DNA of 64,000 nucleotides from Desulfobacterales bacterium (GCA_026983715.1 JALSTM010000042.1:14594-78593); one strand, 5' to 3'; shown: positions 5,153-51,685, numbered from the stretch's first letter. The notes: generated by a model from the letters alone, not told the origin. Numbers and translations: made by a program.

Positions 5153-7084
5153 TTAAACAAGTCCTATAGTTCCCCCGGACAGGGAAAGACATTCCTCTTC
5201 TATCATCTTGATAAAGTCTTCGGCAGACATCATATCGAGCTGCTTTCCGTCACGAAGCCTCGGTTTTACTTTCTCAGCTTCCACCTCATTATCACCTACC
5301 ACAAGCATGTAAGGTATTTTCTTAAGTTGAGCTTCCCTGATCTTGTAACCGAGTTTTTCATTTCTAGAATCGAGCTCAACCCTAATCCTGGCATCCTTGA
5401 GCTCTCTATAAACCTTTTCCGCAAATGGGATATGCCTGTCAGTTACCGTCAAAACTACCGCTTGCACTGGAGCCAGCCAGGTGGGAAACGCCCCCGCATA
5501 GTGTTCTATTAATACCCCGAGAAATCTCTCAAGAGCTCCAAGAATTACACGATGTACCATAACAGGACGATGTTTCTGGCCATCGGGACCAATGTATGTC
5601 AAATCGAAACGCTCCGGCAACGTAAAGTCACATTGGATCGTTGCGCACTGCCATCTCCGATCAAGGGCATCCTTTAACTTGACGTCTATCTTGGGACCGT
5701 AGAAAGCCCCTTCACCGGGGCATATGTCGTAGGAAATTCCCTTTTGCTTCAAGGCATTTTCAAGGGCACTGGTAGCACGCTCCCAGTCTTCGTCAGTTCC
5801 TATGGATTTTTCAGGCCTGGTGCTAATTTCCATCTCATACGGGAAACCGAAAATATCCATGGTGTGGATCACGAAATCGATTATGCCTATGATTTCATCA
5901 TTGAGTTGCTCCGGAGTACAAAGTATATGCGCATCGTCCTGCGTAAATTGACGTACTCTCAACAAGCCATGCAAAACCCCGGATTTTTCATGCCTGTGGA
6001 CCGTACCGAGTTCAAAATATCTTATGGGAAGATCGCGATATGATCTTATCTGAGATTTATAAATCAGCATGTGAGCCAGGCAATTCATCGGTTTGATGCC
6101 ATAAGATTGGCCTTCAATCTCTGTAAAATACATAAACTCCCGGTAATGATCAAAATGACCCGATTTTTTCCAGAGCTCTGTTTTTAGCAAGGTCGGGCCA
6201 ATGACAAGCTCATACCCCCTTTTCAAATGTTCCTGTTTTTCAAAAGTTTCAAGAATGTGCCTAATCATTGCCCCCTTGGGATGATAGATAACCATCCCTG
6301 CCCCCACTTCATCGCTAAAGCTGAAGAGATCTAATTCCTTTCCGAGGCGTCTGTGATCCCTTTTTCTAGCCTCCTCCAGGTGGGCAAGGTACTTTTTAAG
6401 AGACTTTTTATCCGGAAAAGCCGTGCCGTAGATCCTCTGAAGCATCTTGTTTCGCTCATCACCTCTCCAGTAAGCACCGGCTAGGCCTGTTAACTTAAAA
6501 GCCTTGACATACCCGGTACTAGGAAGATGAGGACCCCGACAGAGGTCAATAAAAGAACCCTGCTTGTACAGAGAAACCGTGTCCTCGTCAAGTTCTTCCA
6601 GTATTTCAACCTTGTAGGGATCATTTCGCTCCTTGAAAAATTCAATAGCCTTGTTCCTGGGCATCTCAATTCGTTCGAAGGGCAAATCAGCCTTTACGAT
6701 CTCGCCCATTTTTTTCTCTATCTTTTCCAGGTCTTCAGGGGTAAAGGTGTGAGGGCTATCAATATCATAATAAAAACCGTTTTCAATGGACGGACCTATG
6801 GCCAGCTTGCTACCTGGGTACAGTTCCTGTACCGCCTGGGCCATGACGTGAGATGCACTGTGCCTGAGGATATCCTTTCCTTCCTCAGAATCAAGCCTAA
6901 CTGGTTCTATTTCGGTATCTTTCTCAACAGGAAAGTTTAGGTCCACGAGACTACCATTCACCCTGGCAGCAACGTATTGCCCACCCTTGCCACCGGTAAA
7001 GGCATCAATAATTTCGCTTACCTTTGTACCCCTCGGGAAATCTTTCTCAGATCCGTTTTGAAATCTAACCTTTATCGCTTCCAT
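5153..7084 (-). CDS. thrS: threonine--tRNA ligase
   Basis: A ThrRS TGS domain begins at [16 protein letters not shown], followed by the class II catalytic core and an anticodon-binding domain. The 654-aa ORF in the track begins at an upstream TTG; the ATG at 7084, preceded by purine-rich AGAGAAGAGGG, is the likely start. Confidence 0.93.
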
Positions 7085-7282
7085 CCCTCTTCTCTCTCGC
7101 TCTCTTTTTAACACCAACTAAAAAAAAAGCACCTTAGGAGACCGATCCGAAGGCGCCTTGGCAGGGTCAACTTACAATTCGGCTACTTTTTTTAACAAAA
7201 CCAAACTATGATGTGATAGATATTGAATCAATATAGGTTCTTGTAAAGACCGAAACTATCAGTTAATCAAGTAATAAAAAAA

Positions 7283-7357
7283 TGGTAGGCACGGGCGGTT
7301 TCGAACCGCCGACTTCTACCGCGTCAAGGTAGCGCTCTCCCCCTGAGCTACGTGCCT
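7283..7357 (-). tRNA. tRNA-Val (anticodon GAC)
   Basis: The reverse complement folds as a canonical cloverleaf: AGGCACG|TA|GCTC|AGGGGGA|GAGC|G|CTACC|TTGACGC|GGTAG|AAGTC|GGCGG|TTCGAAA|CCGCC|CGTGCCT|A|CCA. It has a 7-bp acceptor stem, a TTCGAAA T-loop and an encoded CCA. On the minus strand it is followed by a T-run. Confidence 0.85.
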
Positions 7358-7440
7358 CCACTCAGCTTAACTTGTATAATCTCTAACAATTCACGAAAAA
7401 AGTGTCAAGAAAAAAGAGAGCTTTAGAGTAGATTCGCGTC

Positions 7441-8469
7441 ATGAATAAAAACAGAGGAATACACATCATAAGCGGCTTTCCGGGAAAGGATTTTGGTCCT
7501 GAATTGAAATACTTGATCAGTGATATCGGCGTAGGGGGATTAATATTTTTTAGCGACAACATAGAAAATCCTCTTCAACTGGCAAAACTCTGTACCCGCA
7601 TTCAAAAACACGCATTAGGCGTCCTGGATCGCCCTCTCTTTCTAATGATTGACCACGAAGGAGGGAGGGTCCAGAGGTGTGGAAAACCGTTCTTTTTAAT
7701 TCCCGCTGCATCTGAAATTGCCAAAAGTGGTATCGATCCCAAGAAATACCCGGAAATCGCTGCCAAGGAATTGAAGCTGGTTGGTTTGAACGTGAATCTC
7801 GCACCTGTTGCCGATATAGAACCACGTTCACCCCACCAGTTTCTTCGGGGGAGAACCTTTGGGGACAACCCCGAAATCGTTTCCCGATACGTATTGGGTG
7901 CATTGCACGTTTTTATTCAAAATAGTATCATACCAACAGTTAAACACTTTCCCGGGTTGGGAGAAGCAGTCCAAGACCCTCATGAAACCCTCCCAGTAAT
8001 AAGACGCAACCTTGCCGAAATCATGAACTGGGAACTGGTTCCGTTTGCCAACGCAATAAAGGCTGGTTGTCCGTGTATGATGACTTCTCATGCTCTTTAT
8101 CCCGCAATTGATGAAAAGCTACCTGCCACGCTTTCAAGAAAAATAATGGTAGAACTATTGAGAAAACAGCTCGGGTATGCTGGCGTTGTTATTAGCGATG
8201 ATCTTGAAATGGGGGCAATTTCCAAGTTCGGAGATCTTGAAATAGTCCTTGATCTTGCCATGGAATCGGAAAATGACTTTTTGCTTTTCTGTCATGACAT
8301 AGACCTCGTATCGAGGGCACAGGAATTTTTAAACAGTCACATGGGTTACGAGAAGTTCACAACTTACCACATAGATTCCCTCCCTCGCATAGAACAGCTG
8401 TACGGTCTGCTGGACAAAAATAACATCATTCCCGACATTGAAAAAGTAAAAGAATATTTCAAATTATGA
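7441..8469 (+). CDS. glycoside hydrolase family 3, beta-N-acetylhexosaminidase (NagZ-like)
   Basis: 342 aa. The GH3 N-terminal domain is recognisable from LMIDHEGGRVQR, KHFPGLGEAVQDPH and VISDDLEMGA. Confidence 0.75.
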   Translation: MNKNRGIHIISGFPGKDFGPELKYLISDIGVGGLIFFSDNIENPLQLAKLCTRIQKHALGVLDRPLFLMIDHEGGRVQRCGKPFFLIPAASEIAKSGIDPKKYPEIAAKELKLVGLNVNLAPVADIEPRSPHQFLRGRTFGDNPEIVSRYVLGALHVFIQNSIIPTVKHFPGLGEAVQDPHETLPVIRRNLAEIMNWELVPFANAIKAGCPCMMTSHALYPAIDEKLPATLSRKIMVELLRKQLGYAGVVISDDLEMGAISKFGDLEIVLDLAMESENDFLLFCHDIDLVSRAQEFLNSHMGYEKFTTYHIDSLPRIEQLYGLLDKNNIIPDIEKVKEYFKL

Positions 8470-13061: not shown

Positions 13062-13124
13062 AAGTATCTCTGAAGGCTATTTAAAGCCAAGGACAAGATT
13101 GACTTTTGGAACCTCTGATTAATT

Positions 13125-13206
13125 CTCCGTATTGCCAGAGGGTTTCTTGTACGTCATCCGGCTCCTCTGATCTAGTGAGGGGCAGGCTCGATCCGGTATC
13201 CAGCCA
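13125..13206. repeat. intergenic repeat family D, partial copy 1
   Basis: The string ctgattaattctcc…gtcatccggctcctctgatctagtgaggggcaggctcgatccggtatccag has near-identical counterparts at 46253–46340 and, rearranged, at 28271–28330. Confidence 0.6.
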
Positions 13207-28270: not shown

Positions 28271-28403
28271 GTCATGCCTGCCTCCTGATCTAGTCAGGGG
28301 CTTCCTAATTCTGGATTCCTGCTTCCGCGGGAATGATGTGTCGCCTTGCAAAAATCCAAAATTTTATTTAGCTTGAAAGCGAGGGGTTTCCAACATCCCC
28401 GAA
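28271..28403. repeat. intergenic repeat family D, copy 2
   Basis: The string gtcatgcctgcctcctgatctagtcaggggc…ggattcctgcttccgcgggaatgatgtgtcgcc…ggtttccaacatccccgaaag parallels 46290–46450. It contains the palindrome cctgatctagtcagg. Confidence 0.6.
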
Positions 28404-28428
28404 AGAGATACTAAGAAAACAGGGAATT

Positions 28429-40976: not shown

Positions 40977-42017
40977 TCAGTCACCATCAAACATTCTTCC
41001 TAGACCACCAAGAACATTTAGAACTGAGCCTTCGCCCTTGTCATGGCCACCAAGTTGGGGAGCCGCAGAATAGATTCGATCGGCCAGTCGACTGAAAGGC
41101 AGCGATTGCAACCATATTCGGCCAGGGCCTCTCAACACGGCAAAAGTAATTCCTTCACCACCGAATAAAGCAGTCTTTACGCTTCCGACAAATGAAATAT
41201 CAAAATCTACCGTTGGCTGAAAGGCCACAATACAGCCCGTATCAATTCTCAGAGTTTCACCTGGTTGCAGATCCTTGGATACGATGGTGCCCCCGGCATG
41301 GACGAAGGCCATTCCGTCGCCTTCGAGTTTTTCCATGATAAAACCTTCACCACCAAACAAGCCAACCCCTATTCTCTTTTGGAAAAATATCCCAATGGAT
41401 ACTCCCTTTGCGGCACACAGAAATGCATCTTTCTGGCAGATCAGTGTATTTCCTATCTCTTTCAAGTCAACGGGTATAATCTTGCCCGGGTACGGAGCAC
41501 CAAATGCAACCCTTCTCTTGCCGGAGCCCATGTTTGTAAAAAGCGTCATGAAGAGACTCTCACCGGTAATTAGTCTCTTACCTGCCCCGAGCATCTTATC
41601 TAAGAAGCCCTGGGTTTTGGTAGAAGGACTACCGTCACCGAAAATAGTTTCCATTTCAATACCATCTTCCATGTACATCATTGCTCCGGCTTCCGCCACG
41701 GCACTTTCTCCCGGGTCGAGTTCAACTTCCACGAACTGCATTTCTTCCCCGAAAATCTCGAAATCTATCTCATGAGCGATTTGTCCTTTACCAGGAAAGG
41801 GCGGAACCGGGGGAACAACGGAAGGGTCAGCAGAAGTGAAATAGCTTCTGAACTCCTCCACCTGCCCGGCAGGTGTCCAACCAGACATACCTTGGGTGAA
41901 AAGTAGCGTTTCTGGCGTAACACTGCCATTTCTTATCTGGTTTATTATGTCTTCCTTTCCAAGAGGCCCAACATGCTGATTTCCCTGGGCAATATACCAC
42001 ATCTTGGCATCATTCAT
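40977..42017 (-). CDS. AIM24/TIGR00266-family protein with N-terminal DUF4339 (GYF-like) domain
   Basis: 346 aa. The N-terminus ([51 protein letters not shown]) is GYF-like. The C-terminus has glycine-rich strand repeats ([48 protein letters not shown]) typical of the AIM24 family. Confidence 0.65.
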
Positions 42018-42093: not shown

Positions 42094-43104
42094 TTAGCCG
42101 TAGTCCCAGAAAAGTTTCAAGCGAATCTTCTTAAATTCCTTGGTACTAAAAAGCACCCTGTAATCTTTTAGAGATGGCAGGCTTGTCAGACGCGCCGCAA
42201 TTTTCAAGCATTCATCCCTAGTCCTGCCATGCACCATGGCGTATAAGTTATATGGCCAGTCGGGATGGGCTGGCCTATGATAACAGTGCGTCACTTCGGG
42301 TTGTCGAGCAAGGTATTCACCAAGTGAGTCGAGTTCCTCTTTGTCACAGTGCCACACGATCATTCCATTGGCCGTAAATCCGGCCCGTCGATGGTCAAGT
42401 ACTGCAGCAAAACGTCGGATTATCCCCTTCTTATCCATGGATATTAGCCATTGCAGCAAAAAATCTTCCGTAACACCCAAATTGTTTGCCCACACGGAAA
42501 ATGGTCTCGGATCAAGCGGTAAATCTTCCTGAACACAGCGAACGATTCGTATGTTTTCTTCCGTGGGCTCAAATTTACCTCTGGCATCTATCCTGGGATA
42601 TTCATCTTCGTCCTCGTCAAGGTCGCTTACCTCACCAATAACATCAAGAACCATTGCCAACTTATACTTTTTTACAGCCGGAAGAATAATGGTCGGATGT
42701 GAACCGGCCTTTTTTCGAAGCTTCTCCACAACACCTTCAAGAGATTCGTAAGGTGGAACAGCTATCGTGAACCAGAGGTTGTATGAGCCAGGTCTCAGGT
42801 AATTGTGGCTGACCCCGGGATATTCGTTAATTACCTTCGCAACTTCCTCCACATCGCTCGAAGGAACCTTCATGGCCACTAGGCTAGTCTTGTAACCAAG
42901 GGCAGACGTGTTAAAAATGGCACTAATTTGCCGGATTATGTGATTTCGCTTTAGTCCATCTATATGGTTAATTATTTCAGCTTCAGATACACCAATGATA
43001 TCGCCTAGTTTCTTGTAAGGACGAACTTCAAGAGGAAACCTGCGCTGCACCAGGTCAAGCACCCTCTTCTGCTCATCGGTAAATGAAATTTCTTCTCTAC
43101 TCAT
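42094..43104 (-). CDS. fused siroheme decarboxylase AhbA/AhbB (NirD/NirL-like), alternative heme or heme d1 pathway
   Basis: 336 aa. Two Lrp/AsnC-like half-proteins are fused: an N-terminal HTH (LDLVQRRFPLEVRPYKKLGDIIGVSEAEII) with a RAM-like domain, repeated at IVRCVQEDLPLDPRPFSVWANNLGVTEDFLLQWL. Confidence 0.7.
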   Translation of the reverse strand: MSREEISFTDEQKRVLDLVQRRFPLEVRPYKKLGDIIGVSEAEIINHIDGLKRNHIIRQISAIFNTSALGYKTSLVAMKVPSSDVEEVAKVINEYPGVSHNYLRPGSYNLWFTIAVPPYESLEGVVEKLRKKAGSHPTIILPAVKKYKLAMVLDVIGEVSDLDEDEDEYPRIDARGKFEPTEENIRIVRCVQEDLPLDPRPFSVWANNLGVTEDFLLQWLISMDKKGIIRRFAAVLDHRRAGFTANGMIVWHCDKEELDSLGEYLARQPEVTHCYHRPAHPDWPYNLYAMVHGRTRDECLKIAARLTSLPSLKDYRVLFSTKEFKKIRLKLFWDYG

Positions 43105-43210
43105 GAGTGATAAACAATTTTTCTTTTTTGTTTTTATTCAATATGTATTTATAGTATTTAGCTCAACAAGTTGCAAGCAGGAAGAATTTAGCTTTGAGAG
43201 CCCTAGGGAA

Positions 43211-43414
43211 ATGAAGTTTAGAGAAAAGAGGAAAGAGCATCTATGCTGCTGTTGCGGGAAGGAAGTAACGTTTTGCTGGACGTGTCCGTGTGGTTTTAGG
43301 ATTTGTTATCAATGCATGAACGAAATCATGTGGGGAATGACCTGTAACAGGGTCATGTGGCAGTGTCCGGATTGTGGCGCCATCCGGCCCTTTTACCAAG
43401 ATACTGATTATTAA
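43211..43414 (+). CDS. small 12-cysteine zinc-ribbon-like protein (hypothetical)
   Basis: 67 aa from the ATG at 43211 (MKFREKRKEHLCCCCGKEVTFCWTCPCGFRICYQCMNEIMWGMTCNRVMWQCPDCGAIRPFYQDTDY), with an AGGGAA ribosome-binding site upstream. It is followed 4 nt later by the next gene. Confidence 0.5.
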   Translation: MKFREKRKEHLCCCCGKEVTFCWTCPCGFRICYQCMNEIMWGMTCNRVMWQCPDCGAIRPFYQDTDY

Positions 43415-43418
43415 TACC

Positions 43419-44714
43419 ATGCAAAGAAAAATAGCCATACTTTGGGACGAATCGTTTCTGTGGGGATTGATAGCTTACCTGGCCTTCAAATCGGCTCATA
43501 TCCCTTTTGAACTCATCAGTACCGAAGATGTTTTGAACGGAACCCTTGAAAATTTTGATATTCTCATGGTTCCCGGCGGATGGGCAACCCAAAAAGGAAG
43601 AAAGCTGGGAAAGACCGGGAAAGAAGAAATAAGAGAATTTATTAAATGCGGTGGCGGTTTCCTAGGGTTCTGCGGGGGAGCAGGGTTAGCCCTTGATGTT
43701 CCAGACGGGCTTGCCCTGCTCCCCGTGAGGAGAAAAAAAGCCGAGAGGAGACTCATCAACTTCAGTGGCGGTGTCTTTTTGCAGCCAACACAGCCTTATC
43801 ACCATATGTGGAAAGGAATAAACCCTCCATACGAGTTCTTTGTTTGGTGGCCTTCCCAATTTGAAATAGAAGACACCACCGCCGTGAGGATTCTAGCCAG
43901 CTATCAGAGCGCCGGAACTGATTTCAGGGTCTCGGACCTGAACGTGGAAGACATAGAGTGCTGGGGAGGGAAATGGGAAAGATGGGAAAGTATTTATGGA
44001 ATAACCCTTAATCCCAAGGTTCTCTGGGGGGAACCTTCCATAATCGAGGGAAGTTTCGGAAAAGGGAAGGTGATATTATCATATGTTCATCTAGATACTC
44101 CTATGCATATGAGGTCGCAGTTAGCTCTCAAGAACACCTGTGAATACCTGTTTGATTCTTGTCCGGAGAAAATAAGAGACACAAAATCCAGTTTATCATG
44201 TTATGAAATGGGGGAAATTGTCCTCTTGGACGCAGAAATCATAGAATCGGCTTCCAGGATACGGAAGGCGGTTAACGGGTTCTACGAGTTTGGCTACAGG
44301 AATCTTCTCTGGAATTGGAGGAATCCCTGGCTGCTCCATTGGAAACGGGGACTAAGGGGGCTCGAATACACTACCCTGCTAGTAATGTCAAAGGAACTGA
44401 CTTCCCGAATATTGAAAGGGTCGAAGCAAAAAGTTACTGTACGTTGTAATGGGTGGAAGAAAAAATTTCTGCGTCTTGAGAGAGAAATTAAGTCTTTCTT
44501 TGAACAAGCAACAAACCTACTAGGTAAAGAACGGTTTGCCCTGGATAATTCCTTGGGACCTTTAGAAAAATTATCAAGTAACAGCTCCGGGATAAATAGA
44601 CTACGAAGTGAACTTTTTGGGCAGAAAATGTCCTTTGGGGGAAGGTATAGGAAATTAATAAAACTACTTGATGACCTCCTGTTTGCCATTCTTAGATGTG
44701 AAGATCATGGTTGA
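43419..44714 (+). CDS. BPL_N-domain (class I glutamine-amidotransferase-like) protein, function unknown
   Basis: 431 aa from MQRKIAILWDE. The N-terminal about 110 aa match the biotin-protein-ligase N-terminal (BPL_N) type fold: FDILMVPGGWATQ…EIREFIKCGGGFLGFCGGAGLA. The rest is uncharacterised. Its stop overlaps the next ATG by 8 nt. Confidence 0.6.
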   Translation: MQRKIAILWDESFLWGLIAYLAFKSAHIPFELISTEDVLNGTLENFDILMVPGGWATQKGRKLGKTGKEEIREFIKCGGGFLGFCGGAGLALDVPDGLALLPVRRKKAERRLINFSGGVFLQPTQPYHHMWKGINPPYEFFVWWPSQFEIEDTTAVRILASYQSAGTDFRVSDLNVEDIECWGGKWERWESIYGITLNPKVLWGEPSIIEGSFGKGKVILSYVHLDTPMHMRSQLALKNTCEYLFDSCPEKIRDTKSSLSCYEMGEIVLLDAEIIESASRIRKAVNGFYEFGYRNLLWNWRNPWLLHWKRGLRGLEYTTLLVMSKELTSRILKGSKQKVTVRCNGWKKKFLRLEREIKSFFEQATNLLGKERFALDNSLGPLEKLSSNSSGINRLRSELFGQKMSFGGRYRKLIKLLDDLLFAILRCEDHG

Positions 44715-46227
44715 CTCTTGCTTGCTTAACGGTGTTTCCAGGCTACTCGCCATCAAGGCAATTGAGATAAGTAAACAGAATGTGCCTTGGGACGAGTACT
44801 GCAAGATAATGTCTAGTTTTCTTGAAGAGCTTCGGCTTGAAAACGCTCCCAGCCAAAAGCCAGAAAAAGTAACACCGTCTCCCATAAAAAATGCCCGGAT
44901 GAAAAATATTTCTACTACGTTTCATGGTGATGACTTTTCAATACTTACTTGTACCTCTTTGGGACTTCCGCAGTGTTACGGAGGGTTTCCGCCATTATTT
45001 TTCGTTAGAGGTAACAGGGAAATCGTTGGTTATCCCACGGCCACGGTTCTTAATTCCAGGAAGCCACGCCTCGTTGATCCGAAGGACGAGTGGGTAAATG
45101 GAACCGTGTACCTATCAAGAAAATTTATAAAAGACAAATACTGCCTTGTGTCGAGTACCGGAACGAGCGGCTACGATATTCTTAGCTACATCGCATGGAA
45201 AGAAAAGTGCCCCTTGCTCATTATTCTGGATCAACCACTTCCTTTTTGGAGTTCGAATTCACTTTCTCAGGAATTTACCAAGAAATACGGTTGGCTAATG
45301 GAGCAAGAAAACATCCTTTTTCTTTCCCCATTCCCATCTAGCAAAATTCTACCACGTAAAAGAAGAATGGTAATAAGAGACAGGCTCGTTGTTTCCGTAG
45401 CACGAACCGTGGCGATTGCAGCAATTACCGATTCCGGCAATATGTACAAACTGGCGTCGGAAATATTTGAACACGAAAAAGTCGTCTGGGTTTTTAGACC
45501 ACGAAGTTTTAATCGATTGACCAGTGGGAATAAAAAAATCCTGAATAAATTCCAAGTAAGCCGGCCTGTCACACCTGAGAAGATACCCCCCAACAGATAT
45601 TCTGGCTCAGAGACTGATCATAAAAAATATGCGGATCCAGATAGAATAATTAGCAGATTTCCGGAAAACTACCTCACACATTTTACTAGACGATGCCCTG
45701 GTCCATGGCCAGGACAGAGTTACCCTGCTTATCTTGAGTCCCTCACAGCGGGGTTACCAGAAGCACATCACACGGCTTTTGAAACTCTGAGACACATTCT
45801 AAGGGAGGGCACGGTGAGGGCGGGTACCAAGATAATCAGGGGTAACGTACCCGTAGTTTCTTTGACCGAATGTACCCCGGACGAAATTATGAAGATTACC
45901 AAGTGGAATAGGGCGCTCATCAGGTGGACTTTTGAACCTTACGGAATAGCCTTTCCAAAAGATGCTGTCAGACAACTTGGTGCTCGGCCAGCAATATACG
46001 GTGATAACTTACGGTATTCTAAGATTCCCACCAAGGACCGTTATCTTTTTCAGCTTGACGAACCAGCCAAGCACAGGTGGAAACAAGAAAAAGAATGGCG
46101 GATAAGGGGTGATCTGCGCATCAGCTCATTTGAAACTGGCGACGTTTTAATAATCGTCAAAAAAGAAAAAGAAGCCCTGAAAATAATTAATGATTTCCCC
46201 TACAGGGTATACATCATGGGGAAATAG
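44707..46227 (+). CDS. DprA/Smf-family (SLOG Rossmann) protein with long uncharacterised C-terminal domain
   Basis: 506 aa from MVDSCLL. The DprA Rossmann core is clear: GGFPPLFFVRGNREIV…VNGTVYLSRKFIKDKYCLVSSTGTSGYDILSYIAWKEKCPLLIIL…RDRLVVSVARTVAIAAITDSGNMYKLASEIFEHEKVVWVF. A roughly 190-aa C-terminal extension (nt about 45658–46227) carries HFTRR…TLRHILREG…SLTECT…QEKEWRIRG. Confidence 0.7.
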   Translation: MVDSCLLNGVSRLLAIKAIEISKQNVPWDEYCKIMSSFLEELRLENAPSQKPEKVTPSPIKNARMKNISTTFHGDDFSILTCTSLGLPQCYGGFPPLFFVRGNREIVGYPTATVLNSRKPRLVDPKDEWVNGTVYLSRKFIKDKYCLVSSTGTSGYDILSYIAWKEKCPLLIILDQPLPFWSSNSLSQEFTKKYGWLMEQENILFLSPFPSSKILPRKRRMVIRDRLVVSVARTVAIAAITDSGNMYKLASEIFEHEKVVWVFRPRSFNRLTSGNKKILNKFQVSRPVTPEKIPPNRYSGSETDHKKYADPDRIISRFPENYLTHFTRRCPGPWPGQSYPAYLESLTAGLPEAHHTAFETLRHILREGTVRAGTKIIRGNVPVVSLTECTPDEIMKITKWNRALIRWTFEPYGIAFPKDAVRQLGARPAIYGDNLRYSKIPTKDRYLFQLDEPAKHRWKQEKEWRIRGDLRISSFETGDVLIIVKKEKEALKIINDFPYRVYIMGK

Positions 46228-46252
46228 AACACTTTTCTCCAGGACTTCTCGA

Positions 46253-46450
46253 CTGATTAATTCCTCAAATAGCCAAGGATCTCACATACGTCATCCTGGC
46301 CCCCTGCTCTAGTCGGGGGTAGGCTCGATCCGGCATCCAGGATTTCGTATCCACTGGATTCCCGTTTCCGCGAGAATGATAAGTCCTTTCAAGACAATCT
46401 AAAACTTTTCTTCGCCAGAAGGCGAGACGTTTCACAACATCCCCGAAACA
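46253..46450. repeat. intergenic repeat family D, copy 3 (longest)
   Basis: The string ctgattaattcctc…gtcatcctggccccctgctctagtcgggggtaggctcgatccggcatccag…ggattcccgtttccgcgagaatgataagtcc…gtttcacaacatccccgaaac matches 13125–13206 in its first half and 28271–28403 in its second half. Confidence 0.6.
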
Positions 46451-46593
46451 AACACTAACATATTGAAACATCAAGATAAAAATTATTTGATGCCGATATC
46501 TCGGCTGTGATACGGTTAAGTTAGCGAATTATCTCGAATGACGGCTTTTTTGCGGAACCAGCTAATCATCAATAATTTTACACGAGGGACGTC

Positions 46594-47592
46594 ATGGATG
46601 CCAATGTCATGGAATTTAACATGATAGACGTTGGAGGAAGCCCTGTAGACGGCTATTTCTTAAACAGTGCTTCACCTCCTATCGATCAGTGTCTCTACAT
46701 GGATTTTTACAAGCTGAAAGAGCATCCCTTTTCAATCACCCCGGATCCGGATTTTCTGTACTTAAGTCAGACCCACCGGAGTGTCCTAGAAAGGGTTTTA
46801 TACGGAATTCAGGCGGGCTACGGTTTCATTCTGATTACCGGAGAAGTTGGGACAGGGAAAACTACCCTCTGTCGGTCTATCCTGAGTATATTAAAAGACC
46901 GAGTCAATACAGCATACCTGATAAACCCGTCAATATCGGGTAGGGAACTCCTCGCTTCAGTCCTGGATGACCTGGGGATCGAGTATTCACCAAACTCGAC
47001 AAAAAAAGACCTCCTTTCAAAGCTTAATAATTTCTTACTGTCTAATGAAAATCGCATAACAACCATCATTGTTGACGATGCCCAAACGCTGCCAGTGGAA
47101 ACGCTTGAAGATATCAGGCTGCTTTCAAACCTTGAAACCACGAAAAACAAGTTGTTGCAGATTGTGCTTGTCGGCCAAAACGAGCTGTTAGATATCCTCT
47201 CGCAACCGGAGTTACGTCAGTTAAACCAAAGGATCGCAATCCGGTGCAGGCTGGAACATCTCACAATAGACGAAACGGCCCGTTACATAGACAACCGCTT
47301 GAGTGTAGCAGGAAACAGGGGACAGGTCTGTTTCCAGTCAGATGCTCTTAGCACTATTCATAAAGCATCAGGTGGAATTCCCAGACTGGTTAACCTGATT
47401 TGCGATTATGCATTGCTCGCAGGCTACGTAAAGCAAAAGAACGTGATTTCAGAAAGAGAGGTCCGGCAGGCTCTAAATGAGCTAAATATACCTAAAAACC
47501 GGGTAAATAGTAAACATATTCCACTGTATATCTGGTTCTGCGTGCCGGCGCTCCTTACTATTGCAATTTTTATTCAGTACTTAATCAGGTAA
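46594..47592 (+). CDS. ExeA/GspA-like AAA ATPase
   Basis: 332 aa. The motif YKLKEHPFSITPDPDFLY is typical of the ExeA N-terminus. A Walker A box (ITGEVGTGKTTLCRS), a Walker B box (TIIVDDAQ) and a C-terminal transmembrane helix are present. Confidence 0.75.
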   Translation: MDANVMEFNMIDVGGSPVDGYFLNSASPPIDQCLYMDFYKLKEHPFSITPDPDFLYLSQTHRSVLERVLYGIQAGYGFILITGEVGTGKTTLCRSILSILKDRVNTAYLINPSISGRELLASVLDDLGIEYSPNSTKKDLLSKLNNFLLSNENRITTIIVDDAQTLPVETLEDIRLLSNLETTKNKLLQIVLVGQNELLDILSQPELRQLNQRIAIRCRLEHLTIDETARYIDNRLSVAGNRGQVCFQSDALSTIHKASGGIPRLVNLICDYALLAGYVKQKNVISEREVRQALNELNIPKNRVNSKHIPLYIWFCVPALLTIAIFIQYLIR

Positions 47593-47610
47593 AAATCTCA
47601 GGAATAAAAG

Positions 47611-48789
47611 ATGAGCCTTCTTAACGATGCTTTAAAGAAAAAAGAACAGGAAACACAGATCCCAGATGTACCTTCTCACCTTCTTGGACTGCAAGACGAA
47701 GGAAAAGTAGAGAAAACACAACCGAAAAAGCTCTTTCTTACACTCCTTGCCATACTTGTGGTTTTCTCTGCCGGCCTTTCTTACGGGATACTTAAATACA
47801 GCTCCAGCCAGATCAGGCCGAAAGTTTTATCGATAGGAAAATCAAATATAACTACCAACAAGGAAGTAACCCAGACCGCCCCCGGGAAAAATGAGGAGTC
47901 TAAAACCGGAAACTCCATCAAGACCATTACGACAGAAAAGAAGGTTTTAGCCGAAAATAGTCCTGAGAAAGGTCTGAGTAATGAACATGTGGTAGAAAAA
48001 GCAGAAGTTAAACAGCCACAGGAAGTAGGAAACACGGCAGAGAACGAAAAGTCGAGGGAAAAAGCAACAGCCACAAAAAAAGCCCAGATAGCAAAAAAAG
48101 GGCACAAGCTTGAGGTTAAGCAAACAACCCCGAAAGTTGTAACGCGGGAAAAACCCGTTTCCGTCACGACGACAAAGAAAAAGAAAGCTGTTGAGTCCTT
48201 TTTCATCACTGCTGCAAGGTACCAGAGAGATGGAAGGGTTCACGAAGCTATACGGATATACAAAAGCATCCTTAAGAGATACCCTCAGAACAGAAAAGCC
48301 AGGTTAAACCTGGGAGCAGCATACTTACAGGTCGGTCAGTACAGTGCTGCCTTAAACATCATGGAAAAGCTCTACAATCAATACCCCAATGATCCCCGGG
48401 TTCTTTTAGATTATTCAATTGTACTGGTAAAGTTCGGAAGACTGGAAGAGGCACTACAATGTATAGAACTGGCCGAAAAGAAAGGGGGACCAAGATACGA
48501 AGTACTGCTAAACAAAGGGATAGTGCTTAGGAAACTTGGGAAAATTAGCCAGGCCATCGATGCTTATCGGGAAGCCAGTTATCTGAGACCCAATGATCCA
48601 CGGCTTCAATACAATATGGCTATCGTTTACGATGCGGCAGGATCATATCGAGAAGCAACCAGATACTATAAGTCCTTCCTTGATAATCCTGAACACGACA
48701 CCAAGAAGGATGTTCCGGTCAGGCAACGACTACAACAGCTCTACGCGTACCTGAATCGTATCAAGCAGGAACAGTATACCAGGAATTGA
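47611..48789 (+). CDS. membrane-anchored TPR-repeat protein (possible GspB/ExeB-like partner)
   Basis: 392 aa. A transmembrane helix (LFLTLLAILVVFSAGLSYGI) and a low-complexity lysine/threonine-rich linker precede C-terminal TPR repeats. It sits between the ExeA-like gene and gspE. Confidence 0.55.
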   Translation: MSLLNDALKKKEQETQIPDVPSHLLGLQDEGKVEKTQPKKLFLTLLAILVVFSAGLSYGILKYSSSQIRPKVLSIGKSNITTNKEVTQTAPGKNEESKTGNSIKTITTEKKVLAENSPEKGLSNEHVVEKAEVKQPQEVGNTAENEKSREKATATKKAQIAKKGHKLEVKQTTPKVVTREKPVSVTTTKKKKAVESFFITAARYQRDGRVHEAIRIYKSILKRYPQNRKARLNLGAAYLQVGQYSAALNIMEKLYNQYPNDPRVLLDYSIVLVKFGRLEEALQCIELAEKKGGPRYEVLLNKGIVLRKLGKISQAIDAYREASYLRPNDPRLQYNMAIVYDAAGSYREATRYYKSFLDNPEHDTKKDVPVRQRLQQLYAYLNRIKQEQYTRN

Positions 48790-48794
48790 GATAG

Positions 48795-50465
48795 ATGAAC
48801 GGGAAAACTAAAAGTAAAAAAAGTCGCATCGGGGATATACTGGTCGAACTAGGGTACCTGTCACAGGACCAGTTGCAAAAGGCCTTGCAGGAATCGAAGC
48901 GAACAGGCGTAATGCTTGGTGAAGTCCTTACGAGGCTCGGATGGATTACCGAGGAACAGCTCAACACTGCACTTGGGATACAGTCTGGTGCGCAGTTGCT
49001 TGACACGAAAAGAGTAAGCGTTGATAGTGGTGTGTTGAAAATGGTTCCTCACGAGTTTGCCAGGGAACACGAACTTTTACCGTTCGGTCTTCAGGAAAAT
49101 TCTCTTCAGGTAGCGCTTTCCAACCCCTTTGACGTTGTAGCCAGGGACAAGCTAAAATCACTGACCGGGAAAAAAATTATACCATACATCGCCCCACGGG
49201 AATGGATCACAGGTTCTATTGAGTACTACTACAAAACTGCAGCACACATAGACGAAGAAATTGAAGAAATAGTAAGAAGGGATCTGGCGGGAGATTCCGA
49301 TGCCACAGCCGAAGGCAACATAACGCGATTGGTTGACCTTATCATAGCCAAGGGTCTGAGCCTGGGTGCAAGCGACATACACATAGACCCGGATGAACAA
49401 CTGGTCAGAATATACTTTCGGATGGACGGGGTATTACATCAGAAGTATCTCTTGCCGAAGAAATTCCACTCCGGCCTGGTTACTAGGATTAAGGTCATGA
49501 GTGGCATCCCCCTTGGGGATGCTCACGTACCTCATGACGGTCGAGTTCAGTACGATGCCAAGGTACGAAAGATAGACATCAGGGTTTCCACATTTCCATC
49601 ACACCTTGGTGAGATGGTCGTAATGCGTTTATTAATCAAAGCCGAGGCCGTAGGAAGTTTCGAACGATTAGGGATGACTAAAAAAACAATAGACCAGGTA
49701 ACCTCGGCAATATACAGGCCTCACGGCCTGGTGCTAATCACCGGACCCACCGGGTCCGGAAAAACAACTACCGTTTACACTGTTTTGCTAAAAATTAACC
49801 GATCTGAAATCAATATCATGGCCATTGAGGATCCGATAGAATACGTGATTCCGACTGTAAGGCAGAGTGCCGTTAATCCTAAGGCTGGATTTACCTTTGC
49901 CAACGCACTTCGTGCTGCTCTAAGGCAGGATCCTGATGTGATCATGGTGGGAGAAGTCAGGGACAAGGAAACGGCGGAGTTGGCTTTAAGGGCTTCCATT
50001 ACCGGTCACCTCGTTATCTCCACCCTACATGCCAATGAAGCCGCCGGTGCGGTCCCAAGACTTCTTGACATGGGTGTTCTACCCACAGTTCTGGCATCAA
50101 GCCTGGTGCTTGTCGTGGCACAAAGGTTAGTAAGACGTCTTTGCCCCGATTGCATAGAACTTTATTCACCATCGGCAGAAGAGAAAGAGGTTTTCCTGTC
50201 CAATGGTCTCGAAGCTCCTTCAGAACTTGCAAGAACAACCGGTTGTGACCTGTGTCACAATACGGGTTTTAAGGGTCGAATAGGTATATTTGAGATAATG
50301 ATGGTCAGCAAGGAAATAGAAGAACTGATCATAGGAAACGCTTCACGTAGCAAAATAGAAGAAGTGGCAGTCAGCCAGGGAATGGAAAAAATGTTCGTGG
50401 ACGGGTTAAGAAAGGTGGCCCAAAAACTTACTTCCTTAAGCGAAATCCGGAGGGTAGCAGTATAA
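48795..50465 (+). CDS. GspE/PilB-family secretion ATPase with N-terminal MshEN-type domain
   Basis: 556 aa. A Walker A box (LITGPTGSGKTT), Asp and His boxes, and a tetracysteine motif (CPDC…CDLC) are present. The N-terminus carries two tandem 24-aa motifs, RIGDILVELGYLSQDQLQKALQES and MLGEVLTRLGWITEEQLNTALGIQ. Confidence 0.9.
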   Translation: MNGKTKSKKSRIGDILVELGYLSQDQLQKALQESKRTGVMLGEVLTRLGWITEEQLNTALGIQSGAQLLDTKRVSVDSGVLKMVPHEFAREHELLPFGLQENSLQVALSNPFDVVARDKLKSLTGKKIIPYIAPREWITGSIEYYYKTAAHIDEEIEEIVRRDLAGDSDATAEGNITRLVDLIIAKGLSLGASDIHIDPDEQLVRIYFRMDGVLHQKYLLPKKFHSGLVTRIKVMSGIPLGDAHVPHDGRVQYDAKVRKIDIRVSTFPSHLGEMVVMRLLIKAEAVGSFERLGMTKKTIDQVTSAIYRPHGLVLITGPTGSGKTTTVYTVLLKINRSEINIMAIEDPIEYVIPTVRQSAVNPKAGFTFANALRAALRQDPDVIMVGEVRDKETAELALRASITGHLVISTLHANEAAGAVPRLLDMGVLPTVLASSLVLVVAQRLVRRLCPDCIELYSPSAEEKEVFLSNGLEAPSELARTTGCDLCHNTGFKGRIGIFEIMMVSKEIEELIIGNASRSKIEEVAVSQGMEKMFVDGLRKVAQKLTSLSEIRRVAV

Positions 50466-51685
50466 TGCCTCTCTTCAGATACACTGCGCTGGACGGTCAT
50501 GGAAAGATTGTAAAGGGCACAATGGTTGCTCTCACAGAGTCTGATGCTGAAAAGCGACTTGGTGAGCGAGATCTCACGCTAATCCAGGCAAAAAAACTCT
50601 CAGAACGATTCTCTGCGCTGTCGCATATTTTCAAGAGACAAGTTCGCGATAGAGACCTTATCGAGTTCTACCAGAGACTTTCCGAGTCGCTGGAAGTAGG
50701 TTTACCGCTACTTTCTACCCTGGAAGAAAACATAAAGCTTATTGGATCGAAGAGACTTGCGAGAAGCGTTGAAAGGGTAAAGCTTGACGTAGAAAATGGG
50801 CTTACACTTTCACAGGCCATGAGCCAGCAATCTGACGTGTTCGATACCCTTCAGATTGGGATCGTGGCAATGGGTGAACAGTCCGGTACTCTTCCGGAAG
50901 CTCTCAAGCATCTGGCTGATTTCCTTGAATGGAAGTACCAACAGAAATCCTTGTTAAAACGAGCATCCATATACCCTGCGTTTATTTTTGTGACGGTGCT
51001 GGTTGTGGTAGCCATTTGGGTTGGTTACGTTTTGCCACAAGTTGGTGGGTTCCTGGAAAGTATGCAAATTGAGCTCCCTACTATAACCATGGCTGTAATT
51101 ACCATGAGCAGATGGATCCAAGGACACTGGATACATATCATTGCAGGACTTACCGGGATAATCATTGGTACCGTGATTTTCAAAAAATCAAAGTGGGGTG
51201 GGGTCAAATATGACATGTTAATGTTAAAATTGCCCGTGGTGGGAAAAGTAATACTTAACTCATCCGTCAGTAGAATAGGGCACTATTTCTCTGTCATGCT
51301 AGAAGCAGGAATGAACCTAGTCACAATATTTGAATTGATGACTGATGGCATTATAGGAAATAAGTACATTGAAAAACAGCTCGAAAGGGTTTTTGATCAG
51401 GTGAAACAGGGCAAACAGTTTTTTGAAGCATTTAAGAAGGAGAAGACCTTCCCAGATCTCTTTCTCGGTGCAATCAAAACAGGGGAACAGGCTGGTAAAC
51501 TGGCCGAGACTTTCAAAAGACTCGGAGTTTACTACGACAAGGAAGTCAAAAGATCTGTGAAATTTCTTGTTGCAGCCTTTGAACCTGCCATCATTATTTT
51601 TCTCGGCCTTTTTTTCGGCATCATTATCCTTGCAATACTGTCCCCCCTTTACGACGTAATTGGCCAGATAAGCAAGGCTTACTAA
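50465..51685 (+). CDS. GspF/PilC-family inner-membrane platform protein
   Basis: 406 aa. Two T2SF domains with three transmembrane segments are present. The start codon overlaps the gspE stop. Confidence 0.9.
   Translation: MPLFRYTALDGHGKIVKGTMVALTESDAEKRLGERDLTLIQAKKLSERFSALSHIFKRQVRDRDLIEFYQRLSESLEVGLPLLSTLEENIKLIGSKRLARSVERVKLDVENGLTLSQAMSQQSDVFDTLQIGIVAMGEQSGTLPEALKHLADFLEWKYQQKSLLKRASIYPAFIFVTVLVVVAIWVGYVLPQVGGFLESMQIELPTITMAVITMSRWIQGHWIHIIAGLTGIIIGTVIFKKSKWGGVKYDMLMLKLPVVGKVILNSSVSRIGHYFSVMLEAGMNLVTIFELMTDGIIGNKYIEKQLERVFDQVKQGKQFFEAFKKEKTFPDLFLGAIKTGEQAGKLAETFKRLGVYYDKEVKRSVKFLVAAFEPAIIIFLGLFFGIIILAILSPLYDVIGQISKAY

Follow-up and report, generated by a model that had tools for sequence, protein, structure and literature searches.

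A divergent DprA/SLOG protein with a predicted ADP-ribosyltransferase-fold domain in Desulfobacterales, set apart from an adjoining Cys-rich/BPL_N module

A 64,000-nt stretch of DNA from a Desulfobacterales bacterium (GCA_026983715.1, JALSTM010000042.1:14594-78593), referred to here as the window, carries at positions 43105-46227 three tightly packed plus-strand genes, which encode a small Cys-rich protein, a protein with a BPL_N domain and a 506-aa protein of the DprA/SLOG type. A preliminary description of this DNA had interpreted the trio as a candidate nucleic-acid-targeting or conflict system. The product of the third gene is of the DprA/SLOG type but divergent and outside the canonical DprA equivalog, and its C-terminal domain is predicted from the structural model to have an ADP-ribosyltransferase (ART) fold, closest to that of the DarT enzymes that modify single-stranded DNA (ssDNA); it is called DprA-ART in what follows. 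The trio itself is a lineage-specific juxtaposition of this fusion gene with a Cys-rich/BPL_N module. Of the earlier interpretation, the divergent DprA/SLOG protein with an enzyme-type extra domain stands and the three-gene conflict system is not supported.

The DprA-ART gene occupies positions 44707-46227 (plus strand), and its ATG overlaps the TGA of the BPL_N gene by 8 nt; public gene callers instead annotate a TTG at 44668 as the start, which would give 519 aa. The AlphaFold2 model of the protein (pLDDT 88.2, pTM 0.87) comprises a SAM-like three-helix N-terminal region as in S. pneumoniae DprA and ShosA (residues 1-75; 44707-44931, plus strand), a DprA/SLOG Rossmann domain with the motifs NSR, SSxG..G.D and RDR (residues ~76-290; 44932-45576, plus strand) and a DarT/AbiGi-like ART-fold domain (residues ~321-506; 45667-46227, plus strand, stop codon included). 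The SAM-like region and the extended Rossmann domain can be superposed on solved DprA structures, and variants of the SR, G..G.D and R-x-R motifs are retained in the DprA module. At the sequence level, the Pfam family DNA_processg_A (PF02481) matches the window protein with 19.9 bits (E 4.5e-4), below its gathering score of 29.6, and about half of the relatives have a precomputed match to the same family. The assignment to the DprA/SLOG group, already proposed in the preliminary description, is upheld by the fold and agrees with this sub-threshold match. Nevertheless, no NCBIfam model matches the window protein at E<=1, hence not the dprA equivalog TIGR00732 either, against which seven DprA-ART relatives score 18-37 bits with a cut-off of 191.15.

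With regard to the C-terminal domain, the model presents the beta-sheet core of an ART together with the elements of an ART catalytic motif, namely a His/Arg in strand 1, a Tyr or Ser-x-Ser, and a Glu or Glu-x-Glu. The candidate catalytic residues are H325, R328, Y412, Y431 and E461-x-E463. Within the model, strand 1 contains H325, Y412 comes before strand 3 and a later strand begins with E461-x-E463, a predicted layout that is that of ART motifs I to III, the motifs having been assigned by the secondary structure of the model and not by residue-level superposition. These positions are nearly invariant among 77 species-level relatives with a median pairwise identity of around 35%: H325 and R328 are present in all 77, Y431, E461 and E463 in 76 each and Y412 in 74, and S385/T387 are mostly retained. 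An alignment of 65 members of the family contains two conserved blocks, of which the C-terminal one is rich in invariant residues (H325, T327, R328, G332-P-W334, R378, R406, E410, Y431, Q449, W458, E461 and E463-W-R465). The candidate catalytic residues are also kept in stand-alone relatives of the ART domain at ~30% identity. The domain has no Pfam model of its own, and sequence searches of the PDB with it, based on a profile of 22 sequences and on a broader one of 9, returned only spurious hits (UL131A and tyrosine phosphatases). Since the C-terminal domain appears to have a catalytic-type ART fold with a conserved H-Y-ExE-like motif, an added enzymatic activity on nucleic acid is plausible. 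The preliminary suggestion that the extension gives this DprA-type protein an enzymatic activity on nucleic acid is in this way strengthened and given a more specific form, that of a DarT/AbiGi-like ART with a predicted activity, and an enlarged winged helix does not account for the additional region.

Two of the stand-alone relatives were observed in other settings, and both carry the H...R...Y...ExEWR residues. One is a 412-aa hypothetical protein (locus L170, 3965-5203) on the conjugative plasmid pP72_b of Phaeobacter inhibens, beside type IV secretion genes. The other is found in locus L171, on a contig labelled Salmonella phage S.Kent 1-2-1, where the ART domain precedes a DUF4427 domain.

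The DprA-ART family consists of at least 249 relatives, proteins of ~500 aa. Searched against 1.84 billion representatives, a profile of the ART domain retrieved 2438 clusters (50% identity), with E<=1e-30 for 1129 of these; the 150 top-ranking clusters listed consist mostly of proteins of ~500 aa in which the domain is C-terminal. When 185,579 species genomes were scanned by pattern, 108 stretches encoding a relative were confirmed, the best 80 of which make up the genome loci considered here, with neighbouring genes clustered and the clusters annotated by Pfam. These 80 loci belong mostly to Thermodesulfobacteriota (Desulfomonilaceae, Syntrophobacteraceae, Syntrophaceae, Desulfacinum, Desulfosoma and Desulfarculia), and further loci come from a few Nitrospirota and from one metagenome-assembled genome (MAG) labelled Poribacteria. 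The more than 1000 clusters of the family stem mostly from Thermodesulfobacteriota that are sulfate-reducing or syntrophic. The fusion gene is vertically conserved in Thermodesulfobacteriota and a few Nitrospirota, and searches of plasmids, phages and IMG/VR contigs yielded no full-length DprA-ART. NCBI gives some members the name DprA, and the orthologue of the cultured Syntrophobacter fumaroxidans MPOB, Sfum_4022, is annotated as a hypothetical protein. A search of the available literature library found no description of a DprA-ART or DprA-AbiGi fusion and no mention of the S. fumaroxidans locus tags. A scan of the window and of all fetched loci with a fragment of S. pneumoniae DprA recovered no canonical dprA, only the DprA-ART genes and these weakly; one borderline open reading frame (ORF) in locus L041 (17507-18676) has no NCBIfam match.

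The genes found near the fusion gene in the best 80 loci are most often those for ComEC (29 loci), a RodZ-like protein (29), PilD (26), YchF (19) and BPL_N (12). Three arrangements recur. The first consists of an opposite-strand comEC, a RodZ-like gene, a 113-aa ORF, the fusion gene and the prepilin peptidase gene pilD, often followed by pstSCA; the fusion proteins in this arrangement have a median identity of only 37%, so this synteny is old. In the second, an opposite-strand ychF lies directly upstream of the fusion gene (19 loci), and in 10 of the 18 full-length loci it is preceded by the Cys-rich ORF, a coenzyme A (CoA)-disulfide-reductase/rhodanese gene and the BPL_N gene. The third is that of the window and of three related loci (L001, L005 and L006), where a divergent ahbAB-type gene is followed by the Cys-rich, BPL_N and fusion genes and then by pilus genes of the mshM/N/E/G type. 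The fusion gene adjoins DNA-uptake or pilus genes in two independent arrangements, both chromosomal and non-mobile.

Some side observations concern individual loci. The ~113-aa ORF between the RodZ-like and fusion genes has no Pfam match and was seen in 20 loci (for instance L034, 8971-9312, and also L023, L027 and L038); it has no counterpart in the window and, in genomes of the ComEC/PilD type, its product might act together with the fusion protein. Two full-length fusion copies, 62% identical, are present in the Nitrospirota MAG JBDRHR01 (L012 and L015), and one full copy and a partial second one in the Desulfomonilaceae MAG DATJPW01 (L022 and L077); such duplicates are either paralogues or the product of mixed bins. 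In L002, a deltaproteobacterial contig, a nucleotidyltransferase/HepT toxin-antitoxin pair (5297-5922) directly precedes the fusion gene (6001-7593), the sole defence-like neighbour noticed.

Taken together, these data can be read as describing a chromosomal enzyme that ADP-ribosylates ssDNA or a target bound to ssDNA, possibly tied to DNA uptake and separate from the Cys-rich/BPL_N module, a proposal that we consider about as likely to be right as wrong. By analogy with DprA and ShosA, both of which bind ssDNA (PMC11961720), the DprA module would bind ssDNA and thereby position the ART domain on it, and the ART domain would then transfer ADP-ribose from NAD+ to this ssDNA or to a component bound to it. 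DarT modifies bases in ssDNA only and has an H-Y-E-type site with a catalytic Glu (PMC11543638). The ssDNA acted on would most likely be DNA that enters through the uptake machinery, perhaps the strand imported by ComEC, or else intermediates of replication or repair, since the gene is chromosomal, conserved and repeatedly found beside comEC, pilD or Msh genes. The use of NAD+, the substrate and the connection with DNA uptake are all parts of the proposal that we infer. A more ambitious version, in which DprA-ART is a housekeeping, non-toxin DNA ADP-ribosyltransferase working on ssDNA that enters via ComEC and a type IV pilus, seems doubtful at present.

Several observations weigh against the proposed enzyme. 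The search of the PDB with Foldseek gave no significant match for the model of the ART domain, with a best E of about 1. The best structural match of the DprA module is the antitoxin ShosA, which fits a role in conflict equally well. Among the annotated conserved neighbours no macrodomain or NADAR gene stands out, although no dedicated search of the flanks was made; the absence of an obvious ADP-ribose hydrolase partner would be unusual for an ART that modifies DNA and is left unexplained if DNA is what is modified. Most of the ComEC/PilD synteny is contributed by a single order-level clade, and a stable position rather than a common function could explain it. Lastly, the tight packing of the three genes in the window's own lineage (four genomes), together with their shared order in Syntrophobacteraceae, makes a functional link between the fusion gene and the other two possible.

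The alternative that survives best is a single-protein conflict module, in which the DprA/ShosA-like part senses, or is titrated by, foreign ssDNA from phages, plasmids or transformation, and the released DarT/AbiGi-like toxin domain ADP-ribosylates DNA and halts replication. DprA-like proteins act as antitoxins in ShosTA, the nearest ART folds are those of the DarT toxins and the sole Pfam similarity is to the abortive-infection protein AbiGi. Moreover, the ART domain has stand-alone relatives on a conjugative plasmid with type IV secretion genes and on a phage-labelled contig, two full copies with 62% identity are present in one Nitrospirota MAG and a full and a partial copy in one of Desulfomonilaceae, and the family diverges fast, with median identities of 35-37% within clades. 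Conversely, the gene has kept a stable chromosomal position beside housekeeping genes even between deeply diverged lineages, its occurrence is phylum-restricted and narrow, not patchy, its full-length copies were not found on plasmids, phages or IMG/VR contigs, its GC content is native and there is no significant PADLOC match, the best being PsyrA with an E of 0.017. The suggestion of the preliminary description that the locus may be a defence module finds no support in this housekeeping context (ComEC, RodZ-like, PilD, Pst, YchF and Msh) nor in PADLOC, where no model matches below E = 0.01. A conflict module of a single protein is regarded as unlikely, without being far-fetched.

The target of the putative ART activity could also be of another nature, that is, a protein on ssDNA such as RecA or SSB, or terminal or 2'-phosphates as for Tpt1/KptA, in place of DNA bases. 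Protein-targeting ARTs (SopF, OspC3 and pertussis-like toxins) come close behind in the fold matches, and the ExE motif is established as typical of ARTs that modify protein Arg residues (see also PMC12522546). Against this, the four best matches are all DarT enzymes and a DNA substrate would most simply account for the fusion to an ssDNA-binding module; such a target is judged improbable, even though the present data do not discriminate between DNA bases and a protein or phosphate.

As for the remaining two genes of the trio, the Cys-rich gene (43211-43414, plus strand) encodes a 67-aa protein with 12 Cys, and its start is backed by an AGGGAA Shine-Dalgarno-like sequence and by the alignment of homologues. 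Ten of the 12 Cys are conserved, in the pattern CxxC...CWxCPC...CxxC...C...CxxC, and the protein has a C-terminal WxCPDCGxIRxF motif. Judging from this pattern, it is probably a zinc-binding knuckle or ribbon; it has no match in Pfam, NCBIfam or PADLOC. Only 5 homologues are present in the protein database, probably because gene finders seldom call ORFs of this size, and six-frame searches found the ORF in 14 of the 89 related loci examined first. Wherever it was seen, a BPL_N gene follows within ~2.2 kb downstream, and the interval between the two is often occupied by a CoA-disulfide-reductase/rhodanese gene for 576-595 aa. Examples are L007 3948-4208 and L172 1764-2033, the latter being S. 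fumaroxidans Sfum_4026.

The BPL_N gene (43419-44714, plus strand; 431 aa) starts 4 nt past the stop codon of the Cys-rich gene. Its product matches BPL_N (PF09825) with 31.3 bits (E 1.3e-7), above the gathering score of 24.2, and is class-I glutamine-amidotransferase-like, with a weak match to the CobB/CobQ-type GATase_3. The Cys of its nucleophile elbow, C85 in G83-x-C85-G-G-A-G89 (GFCGGAG), is invariant across 48 relatives. Both the 12-Cys protein and the BPL_N signature had been recognised in the preliminary description, and the conservation of the former and the above-gathering score of the latter bear this out. The family comprises more than 1000 stand-alone relatives of ~420 aa with about 40% identity over the full length. 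In 83 loci (L007-L009 and L090-L169), the most frequent BPL_N neighbours are precorrin/TP_methylase genes of the cobalamin pathway (18 loci), CoA-disulfide-reductase/rhodanese (14), DsrA/B-type sulfite reductase (9) and CbiA/CobB (6), and DsrEFH/TusA genes were also seen. This setting points to a tetrapyrrole- or sulfur-related amidotransferase-like role; that the protein amidates a sirohaem-type cofactor is speculation. None of the three proteins of the trio has a significant NCBIfam or PADLOC match.

Whether the three genes form one system was approached from both sides. Of the 80 genome loci, only 12 have a BPL_N gene in the vicinity of the fusion gene, and 68 do not. The converse was examined in 80 metagenome loci centred on BPL_N homologues, where the Cys-rich ORF is present in 12, the reductase in 15 and the fusion gene in 3. 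In Desulfacinum hydrothermale DSM 13146, the Cys-rich, reductase and BPL_N genes are located on one contig (FWXF01000018) and the fusion gene on another (FWXF01000004). Because of this low co-occurrence in both directions and of the split between contigs, the trio is taken as two modules that have come to lie side by side. In Syntrophobacteraceae, the order Cys-rich, BPL_N, fusion is found with insertions, including in S. fumaroxidans from Sfum_4026 to Sfum_4022, and the opposite-strand ychF separates the BPL_N gene from the fusion gene, so that no co-transcription can take place there. This shared order suggests that the synteny was inherited and became compacted in the lineage of the window through the loss of the reductase and ychF genes. 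In that lineage the trio is likely to be co-expressed, given the tight packing in four genomes, from which mutual dependence does not follow.

A single three-component nucleic-acid-targeting or conflict system made of the Cys-rich, BPL_N and DprA-like proteins, as originally envisaged, would agree with the 4-nt gap and the 8-nt overlap at the junctions, with the contiguity of the trio in L001, L005 and L006 and with the same order, interrupted by insertions, in Syntrophobacteraceae. It is nonetheless highly unlikely in view of the 68 of 80 fusion loci without a nearby BPL_N gene and the 77 of 80 BPL_N loci without a fusion gene, of the interruption by ychF and the separate contigs already mentioned, and of BPL_N neighbours dominated by cobalamin, siroheme and sulfite-reductase genes. 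Least probable of all is an ordinary competence or recombination DprA whose C-terminal domain is a non-catalytic DNA- or protein-binding appendage replacing the winged helix, since, despite the DprA fold with its SR, G..G.D and R-D-R motifs, the adjoining ComEC, PilD and Msh pilus genes and the name DprA given by NCBI to some members, near-invariant His, Tyr and Glu-x-Glu residues are hard to explain in a purely structural domain, the relatives score 18-37 bits against a TIGR00732 cut-off of 191 and the window protein has no match.

The layout of the locus agrees with the preliminary description in most respects. All three plus-strand ORFs were verified at the coordinates first assigned to them, with the 4-nt gap and the 8-nt overlap, and each has conserved homologues, which indicates that all three genes are real. 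Their GC content (44-45%) does not deviate from the window mean of 44.1%. Upstream, the intergenic region 43105-43210, with 69.8% AT against 55.9% in the window, is common to the trio and to a divergent gene on the minus strand (42094-43104), which encodes a fused AhbA/AhbB-type siroheme decarboxylase with two copies each of the Pfam domains NirdL-like_HTH and AsnC_trans_reg2; the AT-rich divergent region had been correctly noticed, as had the identity of this neighbour, also present in L001, L005 and L006. A consensus promoter scan found no sigma-70-like site on the plus strand of 43105-43210, and a consensus terminator scan found no terminator downstream of the DprA-ART gene. Just beyond the ahbAB-type gene, a 346-aa protein is encoded on the minus strand (40977-42017), the L005 counterpart of which has GYF_2 and AIM24 domains.

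Downstream, MSH-type type IV pilus genes extend over 46594-51685 on the plus strand (by Pfam, an MshM-like AAA_22 protein, a TPR protein, the MshE ATPase and a T2SSF platform protein), in an order that is identical in L001, L005 and L006. The spacer between the fusion gene and this cluster (46228-46593) contains dispersed-repeat segments with ~77% identity to 13115-13203 and 28311-28414, each of these sites being matched by a different segment of the spacer. The repeat element reported after the third gene is thus real insofar as related segments occur at two other sites of the window, and the copies are partial, not of a whole element. Its candidacy as a structured RNA or as the end of a mobile element was dropped, as the spacer has no match to an Rfam family and only two partial 77% copies are present in the window.

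Should the more ambitious version hold, in which DprA-ART is a housekeeping enzyme coupled to DNA uptake, an ADP-ribose mark would control the recombination of transforming DNA or bar foreign ssDNA, which would add a new layer of control to natural transformation and be the first instance of DNA-base ADP-ribosylation outside toxin systems. To our knowledge, bacterial DNA ADP-ribosylation has so far been known from toxins, namely DarT and the pierisin and scabin-like enzymes. DprA, for its part, is known to bind ssDNA passively and to load RecA, and its conserved fusion to an ART domain points to an enzymatic modification directed at ssDNA in a chromosomal context that is not mobile, a matter of relevance to both the ADP-ribosylation and the competence fields. 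The orthologue Sfum_4022 in a cultured organism makes the idea directly testable. Additionally, a second uncharacterised module, composed of the Cys-rich and BPL_N genes and tracking tetrapyrrole and sulfur genes, could be separated out.

DarT, of the DarTG toxin-antitoxin system, is specific for thymidine or guanosine in ssDNA. When compared with known systems, the fusion protein differs from DarTG in its flanks, which in the window are the BPL_N gene and a gene for an MshM-like ATPase, with no adjacent DarG macrodomain or NADAR gene. No match to the DarT family (PF14487) was obtained at E<=10 in 22 DprA-ART members, nor one between DarT sequences from the PDB and the C-terminal domain at the same threshold. 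Unlike DarT, the fusion protein combines an ExE motif with additional beta-alpha-beta elements at the C-terminus, is fused to DprA and not free-standing, and is encoded in a chromosomal housekeeping context in place of a mobile toxin-antitoxin locus.

AbiGi proteins are stand-alone proteins of abortive-infection loci. Among Pfam families, AbiGi (PF10899) alone shows sequence similarity to the C-terminal domain, matching 3 of 22 members with a best E of 0.0032, and the phage-labelled stand-alone relative with an E of 0.012. The AbiGi and DUF2971 families are ART-like and similar to DarT, with an ExE form of motif III (PMC12522546). All the AbiGi matches are nevertheless below the gathering score, the window protein itself has none and no AbiGii-like neighbour is annotated.

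DprA/Smf, or DNA-processing protein A, is the RecA loader in transformation. The fusion protein departs from it in scoring far below the TIGR00732 cut-off, in its altered GLAxGID motif and in the replacement of the winged helix by an ART domain. With ShosA/PsyrA it shares only 12% sequence identity, PADLOC returns PsyrA at E 0.017 and no other model, and the neighbours are BPL_N and Msh pilus genes instead of a partner gene for ShosT (phosphoribosyltransferase) or PsyrT (RecQ-like). Its effector-like part is an ART, a different kind of domain, and is fused in cis. The patchy or mobile distribution and defence-island context of anti-phage systems in general were not encountered either, the gene being in conserved synteny with ComEC, RodZ-like, PilD, Pst and YchF genes. 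DprA-ART is therefore best regarded as a new combination of known kinds, ART enzymes on the one hand and DprA/SLOG proteins on the other, and not as a categorically new system.

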